Source: Octopus vulgaris | Lineage: Eukaryota | Direction: 5' to 3' | Length of the DNA stretch: 64,000 nucleotides | NCBI GenBank assembly: GCA_951406725.2 | Contig: OX597832.1 | Span: forward strand, 11,222,001-11,286,000 | The notes under the pieces: model-generated | Database searches by the model: none | Seen by the model: the letters and a program-made list of their open reading frames with translations, nothing else | Told to the model about the DNA's origin: nothing | Made by a program: the position numbers and the translations under genes | Shown here: piece by piece, positions 4,357 through 43,541 of the stretch | Numbering within the stretch: position 1 is the first letter of the stretch | Layout of the letters: the number at the start of each line of letters is the position of its first letter

Positions 4357-4878
4357 AAATCCTAACTGGAGTCAGACACCGATGTTACATGTGATATGTT
4401 TGTCAACTGTGGCGGACTTAACATGAAACCAATGGTAGCCTTAACGCATAAACAATGAAACTTTATCCACCAATGCGGTGTAGAGCACCGATTTTCAATG
4501 TTTGATATTTACTCATATCTGTGTGTGTGTGTGTGCGCGCGCGAGTGTGTGTATGTGTGTGTATATTTAATTAAAACGAATAAGAAAATTTTTTAAATAT
4601 TTTTGTTGTTATTGCAAAATCCCAGAAAATAATTAAAAATTCACATTTTTTGTCAAACTATTTTGTTATATTTGTCTATCTATCCAACTGTAAACATATG
4701 TGTGTGTATATATTTACGTTTTCATGCATATATATATATATGTGTGTGTGTGTATTTGGGATATATATATGTATATGTGTATATACGTGTGTACTATATA
4801 GATTATAATTTATTTTATCATTGCTTTTATTTCATGTGCACTTACATATATGAAATTTCAATTCTTTTCTATTTTCAG

Positions 4879-4983
4879 GTAAGTTAATATCATTTTAAAA
4901 CCTGTTCACTGGATATTTAATTCCAATATCGGATTACGTAACGTTTGGGATTTACAATTTTGAGTGATGAGGGCGGATCTTTG
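4879..4983 (+). other. Candidate non-coding exon beginning with a reconstituted donor (recursive-splice-like site)
   Basis: Polypyrimidine tract ttcttttctattttcAG immediately followed by GTAAGT at 4879. Second GTAAGT at 4984. Stops in all three frames. Confidence 0.4.
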
Positions 4984-7900
4984 GTAAGTAAGTCTTACTT
5001 TACGCACACAGGAGCATGTTGAATCGTCTCTCACAAGTGTTTACATATGCAAATATGTAAATATATATAGATATATATTCATATATATATACATGTATAT
5101 ATATACATATATATGCATACCTATATATATATATAACATCGTGTTTACATTGTTCATCAATGACATGCCAAGATACGCAACATCAAATATATCGCCTTTC
5201 CTTTATACACAAATGCCATTTTGTTTCTTATTTGATATAGCAATATTCATTTACGTTATGTATAAAAAAATGTTGTAGATGAAACATTCAATCTTCATGA
5301 TTTTAATAATGTTGTTGTTAATACCTTTCTCATTGTTACACTTATCCTCATGCCAAATGAGTATCTAAAACAATACATATAATAATTACATATTAAGAGA
5401 TATGCAACCCATTTTCTCTGAATGTGAATCATAAAACATATTTTGGAAACTATATTTGTATGCATATTAAAATTAAATTCTATTGCTAAAGTGAATTGAA
5501 ACATGGATTAACCTGCAAAAAAAAAAGAAAATGAAAATATGCTTTAAATCACAATAAAATACTCCCAAAGAAATGGAATATCTTACAACAAATCTAGAGA
5601 GTCATATGAAACAATCCGAGATTTAAGCAGTTATATATGTATGTTATGTATTTATGTTTGTTATATGTTTTCTTGATGGTAAATCATCGATATTGAAAAA
5701 TTGCAATTATGATTTCTGACGAGAAATTGCCTCTGTTTTGCTAAATATTTTTTGTTTGCTAGTTCTTTAAGGAATTGCAGTTTTAAATTAATGAAATTTC
5801 ATCTTTCATGTTCTAATATAATTTTCTTCAAAACAGTTAAATTTTTATTGCACTTAATTTGTAATATGATAAAATCAGTTAATCACAAAATAGCCAGTGA
5901 GGAACGCTACATAATTAAATTGCAAATACGAGCATTAATATATCATACAAAAGATATTGAACTTGGTTTAGTAACTCAGAGATAATTACAAACGTCCCTG
6001 AAGGTCGAGTTACAAATTTCGCTATAGTTTCTAATAACTCTTATAACTCATATGTATATCGTTTTTTGTGTGTATGTTTTACTAGATTCTTAATCTGAAA
6101 TGGTATATTGATAAAGTTATTGCTGTTATGGAGGGCTATTTTTCTATTAGGAAAACATACACATTATTGCACCTGAAACAGGTTATCAATAGACTGCCAT
6201 CATCATAAATTGTCCTGTAACTAACATAACAGAAACAATACCTAAATTTCCATAAATTCTTTTTTAAATTTCCATCTCAGTAGAAAGCAAAAGTTAAAAG
6301 GAAGGAAGTTATTGTTAATAAAGCTCAGTGAAAAGTAAGATAATTGTAAGAAATCGGTAATATATTCTCGATGTCATGCACATACTAATTAAATCACATT
6401 CCGATCCTTTGCAGTAATAAAGAGAAACTTATATTCATATATTTCCCTCGTTGAGAGCTCGTAGGCAAAGACCGGTCTCAGTTTTATTGCCGACCATTTA
6501 TAAGTGGGAAAAGATAACGTAATATATTTGGGGGTCAAATGTAATTTGAATTATTGGAAGCGAAAATAGCTTAAAGAATGAAATCATATATTTCAGTGCC
6601 ATGAATTCTGTGATTCAAGTTTCACTCTGTTTTGATAAAGGTTGTAGACAATAATATAAACAATTACTAGCGACTTCAGCAGTATTGATAACAAAAGTGA
6701 GCGTGAACGTTGTGTTAGAACATAGAATACGGAAGGTAAATGCTGCAGTATACTGTGTTCCACATTATGCCCGGGATAAAGATTGTCTGATTCTACAATA
6801 TTTCACGATGTCATTTAGATTCCGTTAACTTTTACTAACAATTAAATTCATTCTGTGATGTAGGAATACTTTGAAATAATTTTTTGTATTAAGGACACAA
6901 TGCTAAACCGTTCAACAAAAAGGAAACGCACAAACTGAATTATTATTTTTTTGTAGGGCTATATTCAAACGTGATCATTTACTCAAATTCTACACAAGTA
7001 GTACTTAACCCTTTGTCTTGTAAAATAAGAAATTCCTGAATAAAAAAAAATTAGGAATATTTTCTAAACGAATTTAAATTTGCTATGATTCAGTATTTAC
7101 ACATAAGGAATCAAACGACCGTTTATATTAATTAAAATCTTTATATTACTTTATATTATTTATTTATATTAATTATATAATTTATGTTTAATTATTTTAT
7201 ATTAATTATTTTATATATTATGTTTATATTACTTAAATACTCTCAATGTTTTCAGATACATACATCACCCAATAAAATTAAAACAATTATAATTAACGAT
7301 CGCAGATTTGAACAACAGAAATTCTAGCAGTAAAATATTAATAATACTCTGCAAATGCAGACCCATAGATAAGAAACTCCATATTTGGGTACTGAAATTT
7401 TAATCAAAAATGTAACAGCAAATATATTGCACTCAAAAGACAATTATTGAGTCACTTTTTTTAATTCATGATCCCTTTAGGTTGCTATATTTATACACAT
7501 ACAAATATATATTGCGTATATTTTTCAAAATTGATAGCAACATTTAGATATAAAATGTCGATAAAATAAGTACCAGACAGAGATATGTATTGGCGCCAAA
7601 ACGATCAGCAACATTTCCCTATTAGTGTATCCTCACCAGTCACATGACTGAAACTACTTTAAAAAAAATAGAGTATATACTGGATTTGCAACAGATACAT
7701 CCTTGGAAAGGATTCTATTACGTGTTATATTATATATTCCATACTCTTTTTTTATGTTATAAATATAAAATTCAAAAATTGAATAAAACCTACACATACT
7801 ACATCTGATTCTCATACAATACATACATTTCATTGGTGAGGCATCAGACCACGTTGTGCTGCTAGCATTCGATACTGTGAATAGCAATTTTTGTTATGCA

Positions 7901-30149: not shown

Positions 30150-30900
30150 GTTCAAAAGCTTATATGATCAAACAGCTCAAACAACAGTCACGCACTAGTC
30201 ATCGAAACCAAAGTGTTGTGTGATGGAGGCTTCTCCTAATTAAACATGATCTCTTTCGTCAGTTTTTCTTGCCCTTGTTCTTCATATCCCTTCGTAACTT
30301 TCTCACCAATGTGGCAAAGCATTCTGCATTGACGATTGCCATTAGGTTCAGTGCCGTTTGCATCCCAAAAGACTGAGGTCATCACCTTACCTGTAGATGG
30401 AACGACCTGGGCCTTCTTTAGCGGGGTGTTTCCACTGCATAGTAAACGTTGAATGAAACCGGCTACCTCTGCCTCAAACAATGGCATATTTTCCGTGATG
30501 TGATTGCTATGGTACGCCTTTGCTCATGTGACACAGACTTGGCACCCACCGAGTAGAGACCTTCGTCAGGCCAAATTACTTTTGCACAATATTTCCAAGT
30601 CTCTCGCAGGATGTATTCATAGCATTGATATTTGATTTTTAGATAATCGCCTGTCATCCATCACCGTGTGTTGAACAGCATGAATATTTTATTCGGTGGT
30701 GGCAGTTGCTGGACGTCAAGAACTTGCGAATTTTCAAAACTCTCCTTTCTACTTTTTCACTGTGGGTAATACCTCCGTGCAAAATTTTCTTCTCAGAACA
30801 GTCGGATATCAATCTACCAGAAAAAACAATAAATGCAGTTACTAATACGAAGTGTTTAAATTCATATATACAAGATTTCACTGCTCTAGCATCACTCCTT
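30150..30900 (-). mobile_element. Decayed mariner transposase (irritans/Himar-like)
   Basis: Minus-strand motifs across frameshifts: FSGRL, VMDDRRL, VSTRWVPSL (WVPxxL) and STGKVMTSVFWDANG (compare Himar1 SAGKVMASVFWDAHG). Confidence 0.8.
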
Positions 30901-34612: not shown

Positions 34613-36085
34613 GACAGGCTTCTTTCAGTTTCCGTCAACCAAATCCACTCACAAGGTTTTGATCGGCCCGCAGCTATAGTAGAAGGCACTCCCACTACCT
34701 GCCATGTAGTGAGACTGAAAGCGGAATCATGTGGTTGGTAAGCAAGCTACTTACAACACAGCCACTCCTATATGTAAACACTGGCCAAAATAAGTTTAAT
34801 ACCAATGGTGACAATTTTATTCCTTCATTAAATTATTTTTAACAAATCTGTATAAAATTACTTTATGTTTTTACTGTTTTTGTAGATTATTTTATTTCGA
34901 ATGATATAGGCATTATATATATTTCTACAATTTGAATAATTTTAATGCACGATTAATTCAAATGATTAAAAATTGTCGGCGAAATAAGTTTAAGACTGTA
35001 CCAACATTATTTTGCTTAAATTGAAAAATTACGGTATAAATGATCAACGAACAAAAATTTATTATTAGTATCTAGTGTCATAGACACTATTTTCAATTAC
35101 GGCCTTTACAATGGTGGGACATCGAGTTCGACAAATGAGCACAAAATCACTTGGAATGTTGCCATATTTCTTGAATATAATTATATAATTGGGGCAATTT
35201 TGTAGTTTTTTAGCATGAACACTTTTAGAAACATAATTCCATAAACATTCTATCGGATTCAAATATGAGCTCTGCGGAGGCCATTTAAGAACCACCATAT
35301 TATTGCGCTCAAATATTGTAAAACGTTACTAGCTTTATGAAAGGGGGTGGGGTAATGTTGTGGGCCTCGTTGAGCAGCTTGGGTGTTTGTCCAGTTGTTG
35401 AGGTTGATGACAGACTGAACAGTGTAGGCTATCTACAATTAGTAAATGAAAACGTACTGCCATATTTTAAAAAATCAGACGCCACCGTGACCTATTTTCA
35501 AGCAAGACAATTACCCCGTTCATAAAGCTAGGAAGGTTTGGAAATATTAGAGCGCAATAATATGGTGGTTCTTAAATGACCTCCGCATAGTCCGGATTTG
35601 AATCCGATAGAAGGTTTATGGAATTATGTTTCTAAAGTAGTTCGTGCTAAAAGAAACTACAAAATTGTCCCAATTATATAATTTTACTCAAGTAATATAG
35701 CAGAACATTTCAAGTAATTTTGTGCTCAGTTGTCGAACTCGATGTCCCGCCATTGTAAAGGCCGTAATTGAAAATAGTGTCTATGACACTAGATACTGAT
35801 AATAAATTTTTGTTCGTTGATCATTTATACCGTAATTTTTCAATTGAAGCAAATTAATGTTGGTACAGTCATAAACTTATTTCGCCGACAATTTTTAATC
35901 ATTTGAATTAATCGTGCATTAAAATTATTAAAATTGTAGAAAGATATATAATGCCTATATCATTCGAAATAAAATAATCTACAAAAACTGTAAAAACATA
36001 AAGTAATTTTATACAGATTTGTTAAAAATAACTTAATGAAGGAATAAAATTGTCATCATTGGTATTGAACTTATTTTGGCCAGTG
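34283..36085 (+). mobile_element. Rearranged Tc1-like (DD34E) transposon with long IR/DR-type TIRs
   Basis: ta|CACCGGCCAAAATAAGTTTAA at 34283 and CTTATTTTGGCCAGTG|ta at 36085. Inner direct repeat caaaataagtttaa. Candidate ATG at 34534. Transposase remnants GGGVMLWASLSSLGVCPVVEV...YFQ/QDN and PPHSPDLNPIEGLW. Confidence 0.88.
34548..35346 (-). repeat. Inverted duplicate of 35514-36244 (Tc1 3' end plus flanking SINE A)
   Basis: Continuous reverse-complement match through the transposase C-terminus, the TIR, the TA flank and the SINE, including variants private to these two copies (cccttcccatc, ggttgacgg, gtgttgtaag). Confidence 0.88.
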
Positions 36086-38556: not shown

Positions 38557-39001
38557 TCGAGAAAAGACGAATCGAAGCTACAAAATGATCTTAATGACAT
38601 GATTTGCTGTGTCACCTCATGAATATTTTCAGACCTATCACGGATTTGCTGATCCGGTTGTATACATTATTTGGAGATACACCGGAGAACATTCCTGCTG
38701 GTTTTCAAAGCTGAGCTGATAATAAATGATGCCTTTAGGTAGGTAAACGGGTGTTTTTCATGAGAACCATATGTCCGTCCTACAAAAATTGAGCTTTGAG
38801 AAGGAAAATTGCAATGCCTAGAATATCACATATTGCACGAAACTGTGTTGTTGAATTTGTTTTGTGCCTTAATGTTGCAAATCGGAAGAAGGCTGCGTCA
38901 ATGGAATGAATATAGTCATTTAAAATGGTCACTGTAGACTCTATTTTCCACAGCTATGTAGGAGTGTGCTTGTATGTACAATTGCCTAGCACATACATAT
39001 G

Positions 39002-39093
<92 letters not shown>

Positions 39094-40186
39094 TATATAT
39101 ACTTCTAATATAGGATAAGAAATTTTCCAAAACAAATTTTATCAAAGTGGTAGCATATTCAAATAATTTTAAAGGTATTTCAGCACGATATGTATTCATG
39201 GTGAATGTATATTGTAATGTGGTGATTGACGATTTTAAGTCTATACTCAGCATATTGGTATATAATCTTTTTGCCTTTGTTTATAATTATATATATATGA
39301 ATGTGTGTGTGTGTGTGTGTGTGAATGCGTGAATGCTTATGTGACCATCTGAATTTGTATGTGCATACTTGTTTACTCAGATTATTTTTTTATTCTTTCA
39401 TTTTACCTCTGTAGTTAGTTGACATTAATACTACATTAACCCTCATTTATTTTGAATATCAAAATCACGAAAATATAAAAAGTGATATTAAAATTCTCAA
39501 GAAAACTAATATTTGTTAAACCAGAATCACACTTTAGACGCATCAAATTATATGTCACGTTAGAAGTCATCGCATAAATCGCCTAATCCAAGCTTTCGTG
39601 ATTTTTTGCTATTAATTCTATTATAATCACCATAATTAAAATTAATTTCGATTCGAAAGAACATCAATGAAAATTAAAACAAGACTCGGAAATTTGTAAG
39701 TTACACATCAATTATTTGTTGTGCGTTTTCCAAGTCCTATGTTAATTAGATAAATCATTTGATTTTGTAGACTTTCAGAAATGATGGCAAGTAAATGAAT
39801 CATTTTGGCGTATAATTATTTTTGAATACATTAAGCTAAATAAATATGCGCAAACAAAATATAACTATCTCAACTCAGAGTACTTTATTGTCAGTTGCGT
39901 ACTTTTTTTTTTTTGTATTATTTCGTTCAAGGCTTTCCAGCAGCAATTTTCAGGCAGAATTTTGTCATAATTCAGGAAATGAAAGATTATTTAATTGTAA
40001 TTCTCGGACGCCAACGCGAGAGTGTAAGTTAGGCGGTTATGAAGAAATCCAAAACAGATAATTTTCACTCTACGAGACTCTTTGAGGGAGTATGTGCACG
40101 AGTCAGTGGGAATGTGTGATTGTGGGTGTTAGTGAAATTTTGTTATAATCTTTAAAACTTTGATATACCTCCATACATACACGCAA

Positions 40187-40228
<42 letters not shown>

Positions 40229-40290
40229 CATTATTGGTGAATTGAAGAAATGGAGCTGAACGCAGATTGAACAGAAATCGTTTTATTTCA

Positions 40291-40370
40291 TTCTACACGT
40301 GTTTCGAAAGGCACAAATTACCAAAATCCGATGGAATAATGGGACCATATTGTGTGTTTCTCTTCAGGAA
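40291..40370 (-). ncRNA. Type I minimal hammerhead ribozyme, antisense copy
   Basis: Exact reverse complement of 41545-41624. Confidence 0.78.
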
Positions 40371-41544
40371 GAAAATAGGAAATCCGTTGGAAAAACAAAA
40401 ACAGAACAGAGGCGGAGCAAAAACAAATCGAACTATGCTCCTAAGAGCCCATGGCGAAACTGTTTATCAGTGTATGTTGAGAACCGGTGGCTGAAGAATT
40501 CAACGGGTCAGGCATCGGTCAATCATGTGGGTGAGGGGGCGTAGATGTTCTTTGTGACCGAGAATAAAGTTCTGACTATTTAAGGAATATTGGATGTTTT
40601 ATAAGGGGCGAGAAAAAATCTACTTAGAGACGTGTGTGTGTGTATACTGTTCTATATACGTGTGTGTTGGCGTAGGGGTAGAAAACATTTTTTGTGTACG
40701 TGTGTGCGTTTGATCGTTCGGCTGTCAGTGGCTACTGCCGTGATGACCGTTGGGTGGCAGAAAAAAAATATACATCATGTTTTATGTGTGTGTGTGTTCT
40801 CATCTAAACCTGCCTTGTCAAGGCAGTGCAACCTTTGTGTCTCCGAACTCTTCCATATTTTGTTTGCCAGAGGCCGGATGGTAAACGGGCTTTTACAGTC
40901 GGCTTTTCGATGCCCCCATTGGCGGCGTTACACTTATCTGGCTTTTAAATAGCGTTTATAAATAATACCGGCACCCATAACCCTTGGTAACAAATTCTGA
41001 AATAGCCTTTAAGATATCTACGATTAACCACTGCAAGGGGAATTACTCCTGTAAGACAAACGGGGCTTGGTTTTTTCACAGCGGGGGGTTTCCTTGACAA
41101 GGCAGGTTTAGATGAGAACACACACACACATAAAACATGATGTATATTTTTTTTCTGCCACCCAACGGTCATCACGGCAGTAGCCACTGACAGCCGAACG
41201 ATCAAACGCACACACGTACACAAAAAATGTTTTCTACCCCTACGCCAACACACACATATATAGAACAGTATACACACACACACGTCTCTAAGTAGATTTT
41301 TTCTCGCCCCTTATAAAACATCCAATATTCCTTAAATAGTCAGAACTTTATTCTCGGTCACAAAGAACATCTACGCCCCCTCACCCACATGATTGACCGA
41401 TGCCTGACCCGTTGAATTCTTCAGCCACCGGTTCTCAACATACACTGATAAACAGTTTCGCCATGGGCTCTTAGGAGCATAGTTCGATTTGTTTTTGCTC
41501 CGCCTCTGTTCTGTTTTTGTTTTTCCAACGGATTTCCTATTTTC

Positions 41545-41624
41545 TTCCTGAAGAGAAACACACAATATGGTCCCATTATTCCATCGGATTTTGGTAATTT
41601 GTGCCTTTCGAAACACGTGTAGAA
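41545..41624 (+). ncRNA. Type I minimal hammerhead ribozyme
   Basis: ttc-CTGAAGA (41548-41554), helix II gaaa.cacacaa/ttgtg..tttc with a long loop, GAAA (41610-41613), palindromic helix III ACACGTGT, cleavage triplet GTA (41619-41621), then gaa pairing with ttc. All core residues canonical. Confidence 0.8.
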
Positions 41625-41838
41625 TGAAATAAAACGATTTCTGTTCAATCTGCGTTCAGCTCCATTTCTTCAATTCACCAATAATGTTCTAATTTCAATT
41701 ATCCGCACCAACGCACGGTTGCAACACCATATGGTTGTACCTCCAACCGTGCTGTTTTACTGCTGTGATTTTTGCTACTAAGGTATCGGTTAAACTTTTG
41801 ATTAATCTACTACAAGATTATTCATCTTTCTATTTCAC

Positions 41839-41872
<34 letters not shown>

Positions 41873-41877
<5 letters not shown>

Positions 41878-42118
41878 TTTTCTTCCAAGGAATCTAATGC
41901 TCTTAGTTTAGTTTTTTCGTTGGGGCTGGCCAGATTGGAGTAATCTCTAGAATGATCAGCCGAAATTGCAAGGATAATCTGGTTCTTGACTGAAGATAGA
42001 AAACTTCGAATGACCTGTTCTTGTTTTCTTTGTACCGTCTATCTGGATGTTTTGTTGTCCTTCTTTGTATCACGTAGTTGACCGGATGTTTTGCGTTATT
42101 GTCCCATTTTGCATTTTA
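41873..42118 (+). mobile_element. Interspersed repeat in (TA)n, probable PLE terminal fragment, copy 1
   Basis: Reverse-complement homologue at 54846-55105. Both are bordered by TA-rich microsatellites. Confidence 0.6.
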
Positions 42119-42127
42119 TATACATAC

Positions 42128-42177
<50 letters not shown>

Positions 42178-43069
42178 AAAATCAGCCGTAATATGTTAAA
42201 CTGGGATAAAACTTGCATGCCTAACGCGCTATTGTACGATGTGTTTCCACATATCTGAAATAAACCAAACTGAGTGAGGTACACCGAGATGCACACACAT
42301 ATATAATTGTATGCGTGGGCATGCGTACGGTAACAGAAATGGTACTAGCAAAGCATCTGCCCTTAAGCATATTGGAGACAGTTATGTCGTAAATTGCGAA
42401 ACTAAAAGTACATGAAGTCATGACGTGTTTTATGTGGCGGCTTAATCCTGACGTGCTAAATGTATCTGAACTTTCATCTGATATCTTTATTTGATTTGAA
42501 ACAACACTTTCTTTTCATACTCCCCGAAATCTTCAACTCCCCTTGTTATTGGAGCTGGATTTACTTCTATTTTATTCTCGCGTATTTCTTGATGAATTCA
42601 TTTATAGTTGTAGCCAAATGTTTTGAATATTATAAAGAATCGTTGTTGCTTTTCATACGACAGATTCATTGCAATTTAACGAGCATAACATGTTTCAGGC
42701 ATTTGTTGATTTCGGATTTATATTTTATGTTATATCATGTTTCTTCTCCTTATTTTCATTTAGTCGTGTTTTCGTTATCGATTTCCTAAAGGATTAACAA
42801 CATCTTATATTATTTTTATATCAGATTGTTTCAATCTTGTTCGTTCGGGGTTTGCTATACATATGCAACCTATATTCTTTGCAACTACACAATCTACTGC
42901 ACATATTTCTTTTATTGCCTTGATATTAAATTGTGCATCTTTGTCTTTCATCCTTCCGAGAACAATAATTTAATTACCAGATTGATGCTGGATAGCTTTA
43001 ATTGCATAAACACTTTTCTGAAATGTGCAGGCATTTTACCAAAAATAGGAACCATTAGTATTGGTTCAG

Positions 43070-43520
43070 AGGATGAAGTGGTGAGCCATGAGTTGAGACT
43101 GAGTCTCAAAGTCACGGTCGTCACTACAGAGCCTGCGTAGATGGAGGAATAGGAATAGGGGATGGGAAGCTTGGTATGTTTAGGGTGGGAGGTGGAGAAG
43201 TTGAGTTATGAGTGTGAGTCTGTGTTTGTAGTGGATGGAGGTGGTGGGAGTGGAGTGAAGAATGGTGACCGAAATGTCAAGAAAGGAGACAAAGGTGTCA
43301 GAGATAGTGCAAAAGAAGAGGAGAGCCGACTGGAAAGATTTGACAAAAGAGAGGAAGGAGTCTAGATGTTTGCAGGAGAGTGAGGTCGCACCGATGCAGT
43401 CTTCAATGTAACGGCCGTATAGTTCGGGAGTGGGGCCAGTGAAACTTGAGAATATTTGGACCTCAACGTAGCCAACGAAGACGGTCGCATAGTTGGGCCC
43501 CATTCTCGTACCCATGGCCA
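43070..43520 (-). mobile_element. Penelope-like reverse transcriptase fragment (Neptune-like)
   Basis: VAMGTRMGPNYATVFVGYVE...YGRYIEDCIG...VSFLDISV...TSIHYK, then after a frameshift TDSHS*LNFSTSHPKHTK.PIPYS. These are PLE RT and thumb motifs; catalytic YIDD is mutated to YIED. Confidence 0.88.
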
Positions 43521-43541
43521 CTCTCTCTCTTTCTCTCTCCC

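Follow-up and report, generated by a model that had tools for sequence, protein, structure and literature searches.

The locus described here lies within a 64-kb window (i.e., the whole stretch of DNA that was analysed) and consists of two 5′-truncated, head-to-head arms of a young Hydra-type Penelope-like element (PLE; Table 1). It is an ordinary copy of known architecture, in a Hydra-derived family that combines three variant traits with a countable end-pairing rule. Both arms probably stem from a truncated double insertion into (TA)n, in which the two target strands were primed on the RNA of one donor at two fixed sites.

Table 1. Features of the insertion locus (window coordinates).
Feature	Position	Strand	Remarks
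Left (TA)n target run	40188..40226	.	20 units
Inverted 5′-truncated arm	40227..40823	-	3′ part of the pseudo-LTR (pLTR); ends at site A, without tail
Hammerhead motif, left-arm copy	40286..40374	-	C3 at 40367; mirror of 41541-41629
Junction microhomology	40820..40823	.	4 nt, where the two arms meet head-to-head
Last ~43 ORF codons	40820..40952	+	GIY-YIG-type endonuclease end with CxxC, E, N, CxH and stop
3′ UTR/pLTR of forward arm	40953..41688	+	Extends up to site A
Forward-arm portion repeated in left arm	41092-41688	+	
Type I hammerhead motif	41541..41629	+	7-bp helix I, 2-bp helix III with palindromic loop, predicted cut after 41621
Helix II domain	41555-41609	+	55 nt
Tail between end sites A and B	41689..41841	+	153 nt
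Tail stem-loop	41713..41752	+	z -2.9; also present in the sister family, with one compensatory pair
Right (TA)n target run	41843..41873	.	15 units

The paired parts of the arms measure 597 bp each and differ by a single mismatch (41256/40659), while the 268-nt spacer separating them encodes CNLC...CPH in a reading frame that runs to a stop at 40950–40952. A previous sequence-only reading had proposed a young Penelope-like insertion with a dimer-type pLTR hammerhead and an inverted 5′-truncated copy, and had pointed to mirrored near-identical arms with a hammerhead motif in each, a spacer coding for this C-terminus, and (TA)n flanks; all of this was borne out, with (TA)20 on the left and (TA)15 on the right. 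Absent from that reading was the 153-nt tail, which is found on the right arm only. The locus copy is 99% identical to its family. A retrozyme or non-autonomous element and the terminal inverted repeats of a DNA transposon were rejected as identities, since both arms correspond to nested 3′ portions of a PLE that encodes a protein, and their inner ends vary. A separate repeat of very high copy number, as judged by depth, adjoins the right TA run of the insertion (window positions 41880–42100).

The full unit of the family is 3,624 bp, as given by the spacing of tandem copies, and holds an intact 895-aa ORF (4671–7358 of locus L031). ORFs of this length were found at five loci, with 99.1–99.9% identity to L031 over the last 800 residues, and a genome search returned 1,745 candidates, of which the 40 that were scored were all 99–100% identical. 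The single ORF carries a telomerase-related reverse transcriptase (RT) with the YRDD motif, and the seven best PDB fold matches of its predicted structure (pLDDT of 80) are all telomerase TERT; Pfam searches with the full ORF, the endonuclease part and four homologues, as well as a PDB sequence-profile search, gave nothing significant. The GIY-YIG endonuclease is recognisable at motif level, with Y778, G793 and R802 invariant in 66 aligned sequences and E861 and N874 conserved (the match to the published Hydra alignment being judged by eye). Moreover, the family displays a pLTR, partial tandems, inverted 5′-truncated copies and a one-sided tail, as expected of endonuclease-bearing (EN+) PLEs.

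The clade was assigned by comparison with the accessible parts of Craig et al. (2021; PMC8557442), to which the statements on published Hydra and Naiad families refer. These define Hydra elements by a C-terminal endonuclease, DKT, no CCHH, CxxC/E/N/CxH and (TA)n targets, and Naiads by an N-terminal endonuclease, DKA and no canonical hammerhead. In our element, the RT precedes a C-terminal endonuclease, CCHH is absent, the DKG position reads DKT (D122 K123 T124), and a CxxC and a CxH surround the conserved E and N (C855–C858, E861, N874, C883–H885). The RWK position reads RWL, with R and W retained and with K or R as the third residue in most homologues. A putative canonical Hydra hammerhead lies in the pLTR, where the motif core is present. 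The published Hydra-1_Obim, Hydra-1_Crog and Penelope-13_HM likewise have a single ORF with RT then endonuclease, DKT without CCHH, CxxC and CxH around E and N, and (TA)n targets, the block-by-block match again being judged by eye; they also share a type I hammerhead with a CTGAAGA(G) core and a palindromic helix III. Penelope-13_HM even has an inverted 5′-truncated copy with a hammerhead on both strands, and inverted 5′-truncated copies with a one-sided tail have been described for the clade.

The sequence-only reading had placed the element in the Naiad clade, and this assignment was overturned. Naiads, including cephalopod ones, can indeed show (TA)n targets and inverted copies, but a C-terminal endonuclease, DKT instead of DKA, a full hammerhead and the lack of any N-terminal GIY-YIG domain are at odds with such an identity, the domain order in the full-length ORF refuting it and leaving it a practically nil probability. 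The endonuclease and RT motifs are shared by 107 homologues, among which a partial Argonauta protein is the closest named one. In an RT tree, which did not contain published Hydra or Naiad sequences, the element grouped (0.94) with the linker-bearing homologues P0001 and P0002 and the partial Argonauta protein, and was distant from three RTs of Neptune type in the same genome. A decayed Neptune-type PLE RT fragment (with DKG in its relatives) also lies in the window at 43183–43521 (−), and its family has many long open frames genome-wide.

The element nevertheless departs from published Hydra families, which span 1.1–3.0 kb, so that its unit exceeds the Hydra norm of less than 3 kb, and which carry a CxCX5C linker and RWK instead of a long, predicted-disordered S/N-rich stretch and RWL. 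Specifically, the 45 residues before the GIY tyrosine contain one cysteine, vs. three to six in 91/91 homologues in which that tyrosine was aligned (16 of the 107 homologues were dropped from this count), and the distance from RT to endonuclease is 423 residues vs. a median of 238 (94 rows), the extra linker parts being S/N-rich and predicted to be disordered. A CxCX5C linker motif was also sought, and not found, in other frames, as could be reached via an in-frame intron or a frameshift. The missing cysteines make the element a Hydra-derived variant and not a typical member of the clade and, since they are retained in the closest full-length relatives of the tree, their absence is more simply read as a loss. 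The linker cysteines are missing from the sister family as well. In-frame low-complexity (N-rich) sequence between RT and endonuclease is also known from Pen2a of Adineta vaga (Arkhipova et al. 2013, PMC3846280, accessible part), an element with low copy number, unlike the hundreds of young copies here and their lost linker cysteines.

Targeting appears unaffected, as an A or B end (see below) was joined to a TA-type run in 60/61 loci, the remaining locus being internal to a tandem array; adjacency to TA served as the definition of an end in this count. Mobilisation in trans by a third family that keeps the linker motif is possible but unlikely, as we infer from the intact ORFs and the differing end sequences.

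A pattern scan for type I hammerheads across the whole window found exactly two sites, i.e., with C3 at 41548 (+) and at 40367 (−). Each comprises CTGAAGA, 55 nt, GAAA, a palindromic ACACGTGT helix III, a GTA site and a bulged helix I of 7 bp, and there are two at this locus only because both arms span the motif. An Rfam scan of 39000–43000 at E ≤ 10 reported no hammerhead family, for which the long helix II may be the cause. In minimum-energy folding of 41525–41645 the catalytic fold did not appear (z of 0.61; −9.2 kcal/mol for the catalytic fold vs. −12.6 kcal/mol). The core and three helices are present, but the earlier description of the hammerheads as intact must be qualified: a G>C change in both arms (41559/40356) weakens the helix II stem (−9.3 vs. 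−12.6). This variant has exactly two occurrences in the assembly, one in each arm of the window insertion.

The sequence-only reading had staked the ribozyme on conservation of its core among copies, and the 13 core positions were indeed unchanged in 98/98 arms covering the hammerhead (out of 110 arms in total), an observation that is weak alone because the family is young (an estimated ~3 changes expected). The sister family has an identical core, a helix II of 55 nt, a 6-bp helix I and a self-complementary helix III, with two double-sided (compensatory) changes in the helix II stem, a covariation seen across two lineages only. The long helix II, which had been noted as an unusual insertion of about 55 nt, therefore has its length confirmed as an inherited trait of two families and is not an insertion peculiar to this copy. 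It exceeds the ~10–25 nt tabulated for Hydra elements (accessible part of PMC8557442), whereas PLE-X1_sMoe is comparable in this length. The minimal PLE hammerheads of Cervera and De la Pena (2014; PMC4209133, accessible part) are likewise of type I with a short palindromic helix III, and were reported to depend on dimers, to have low activity in vitro and to occur as opposite-strand pairs 100–700 bp apart; their helix II is 7–8 bp, vs. ~11 bp plus an extended arm here. The helix III palindrome of the present family is predicted to be dimer-competent (−10.3 kcal/mol), and the hammerhead, which is part of the pLTR, likely acts on transcripts of tandem copies, cutting them as a dimer or assisted by protein. 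A tandem array with three full units and a partial one (G000:C1:119514303-119525421; L106, L107) is a candidate donor-type locus, in which hammerhead dimers could form in cis.

The mirror-image ribozyme layout is ordinary, as there are hundreds of young back-to-back insertions. Exact matches to a 28-mer from the family hammerhead number 893, and those to the equivalent 28-mer of the sister family, whose 3′ end is ~75–80% alike, number 200. Contig C1 has 96 exact motif matches in 61 clusters, of which the 29 with both orientations were all head-to-head and none tail-to-tail. Moreover, of the 41 two-armed insertions that could be measured, no fewer than 32 carry a complete hammerhead in each arm, and therefore nothing singles the window copy out. 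An older family copy (93–94%; L033:4203-4663), situated ~5.5 kb upstream of where the window begins, likewise sits in (TA)n with a head-to-head A and B layout.

Two further families came to light alongside. The sister family (L118–L136; at least 200 hammerhead copies) has an even more N-rich linker and yielded no full-length copy, and near one of its copies lies a hammerhead-like motif of a different family (L135:595). The third family (L137–L166, e.g., G000:C27:15433926-15436052) is a typical Hydra family with RWK, DKT, CxCX5C and ~717 aa, having many intact near-identical ORFs, a minimal hammerhead and a TA run inside the pLTR.

Copies of the family stop at two sites 153 nt apart, i.e., A (41688) and B (~41841). 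In tandem copies, the tail between both sites is the 5′ leader of the next unit and ends ~45 nt before the ATG. The count covered 61 loci (50 of 10 kb and 11 short ones), leaving aside L031, L032, L113 and L114. Both outward ends were visible in 43 of them and a single end in 17; the last was an internal stretch of a tandem array. All 43 two-ended insertions combined one A with one B end, and none were A+A or B+B. Loci were taken from the best hits, and as the tail formed part of the first query, one B arm was favoured there; the partner end was free. The same pairing was seen in the sister family, at the homologous sites (7/7; 20 loci, tail-biased query), and in the third family (4/4; 30 loci), where the tail is ~73 nt. 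Published PLE tails, as far as the sources are accessible, measure 30–40 nt vs. 153 nt here, and that a tail can be one-sided was already known qualitatively; Pen2a, for instance, has inverted pLTRs with an optional one-sided tail of 31 bp (PMC3846280, accessible part). Neither this family nor a counted A/B pairing rule was found in the openly accessible literature searched. The 12 bases at site A recur exactly once per unit in the ORF linker (L031:3306, 4468, 6930 and 8093), and several 5′ truncation points lie near L031 6900–7020, possibly by chance.

To compare the two arms of each insertion, minority variants were counted in the 35 insertions with overlapping arms. Of 126 such variants, 60 were common to both arms, whereas random re-pairing of arms (300 times) gave a mean of 6.9% and a maximum of 15.7% shared variants. 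Variants seen in more than one insertion were shared between the arms in 46/60 cases (14/60 unshared), and private ones in 13/103 (90/103 unshared). That common variants are shared and private ones mostly not agrees with two cDNAs having been made from one donor and having then changed independently.

An alternative is that the same element inserted and that the inverted arm is a self-primed fold-back copy of the first cDNA, using the 4-nt microhomology, or the product of later gene conversion. Self-priming was proposed earlier from junction palindromes (PMC3846280, accessible part), several junctions here have nearly equal 5′ ends, and the A arm is nested in the B arm at the window locus and in 27/41 insertions. 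The private G>C variant in both arms points the same way: as it has no third occurrence, either the assembly lacks the donor or one arm took its sequence from the other by copying or conversion. However, in the other 14/41 insertions it is the A arm that exceeds the B arm in length, which fold-back on a tailed (B-primed) cDNA cannot make and for which an A-primed cDNA cannot supply the tail, and these insertions share variants as well (22/37). Since, in addition, most private variants are unshared and the fixed stop at site A would be left unexplained, fold-back or conversion is an unlikely origin of the inverted arm.

An assembly or chimeric-read artefact would also produce near-identical arms that share a private variant, and contigs from four DNA runs over 39400–42900 covered the unique flanks while both TA runs stopped these short-read contigs (words of the element were very deep in these runs, a depth that was not read as copy number). 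Against this, the arms differ at one site and end at distinct, biologically fixed sites, one A and one B end were found in 54 insertions of three families with differing junctions, and the older copy just upstream of the window shows the same layout, making an artefact extremely improbable.

In the favoured double insertion, the RT-endonuclease of the element, probably a dimer by analogy to Poseidon of the anole, would nick both target strands, one cDNA would start at B and the other at A, and both would stop early before being joined head-to-head by microhomology. Junction overlaps of at least 2 nt were seen in 17/27 insertions and of at least 4 nt in 9/27, vs. 16% and 1.5% at random; these are BLAST overlaps and hence approximate, the overlap at the window locus being 4 nt. 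Poseidon of Anolis carolinensis (PAc; Frangieh et al. 2024, PMC11167929), for which a dimer was predicted, offers the closest comparison in the accessible part of that study: two internal RT start sites define its tail, its targets are AT-rich with both strands cut and extended, a stem-loop lies at the start region, and an upstream hammerhead, which needs protein to cleave, was not needed for insertion in vitro. PAc differs in belonging to another clade and in having adjacent start sites within the ORF, instead of 153 nt apart and upstream of the ATG, and a pairing of one A with one B per insertion is not reported in that part. In that study, the start site in vitro was alike on the top and bottom strands, a point that weighs against the pairing rule. 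Asymmetric double priming as a property of PLEs, in which one dimer would use one donor RNA at two sites flanking a conserved stem-loop and would find (TA)n without a linker zinc finger, is accordingly advanced as a tentative model, at slightly less than even chances.

The locus had further been read as a switch between self-cleavage and self-silencing inside a probable host intron, neither of which held up. Read-through would indeed give a near-perfect 597-bp hairpin, and siRNAs matching inverted regions were described for Drosophila Penelope (PMC3681739, accessible part). However, both 3′ ends point outward, so that a transcript from either side meets the antisense arm first, and the duplex of the hammerhead region (−159.9 kcal/mol) far exceeds the catalytic fold (−9.2 kcal/mol). 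Each strand has a single sense hammerhead and thus no dimer partner in cis, helix II is weakened in the window copy, the copy is 99% identical to its family, and the layout is common. Moreover, a comparison of 145 of the 243 filtered window ORFs with Pfam yielded no host exon, but only weak transposase or low-complexity matches, although short exons could be missed. A regulated RNA switch in a host intron is therefore very improbable. Fragments with weak DDE transposase matches lie at window positions 30239–30523 (−) and 35068–35325 (−), with Pfam E-values of 4e-4 and 1e-4, below the cut-off. Instead, the ribozyme would be buried in the 597-bp hairpin of any read-through RNA, i.e., if transcribed, the locus is likely to yield plain passive dsRNA, as a small-RNA or editing substrate. 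Nine runs guessed to be RNA contained 0.29–0.39 of the words, which are not assignable to the locus and provide no expression evidence.

The family challenges the proposed link between the linker and microsatellite targeting (the CxCX5C linker having been tied to targeted insertion in the accessible part of PMC8557442), as the linker cysteines were lost and yet (TA)n targeting was kept. If asymmetric double priming is true, every complete insertion would equal one A end plus one B end. The step of PLE integration that follows priming is described as still unvalidated in the accessible part of PMC11167929; the A+B rule with same-donor arms constrains models of it and argues against fold-back as a general route. 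The family is a ready test system for PLE integration, as its near-identical copies number in the hundreds and its two sites are separated by 153 nt. Finally, each genome contains hundreds of near-perfect hairpins, and these could plausibly act as a built-in supply of silencing RNA, comparable to that of Drosophila Penelope.
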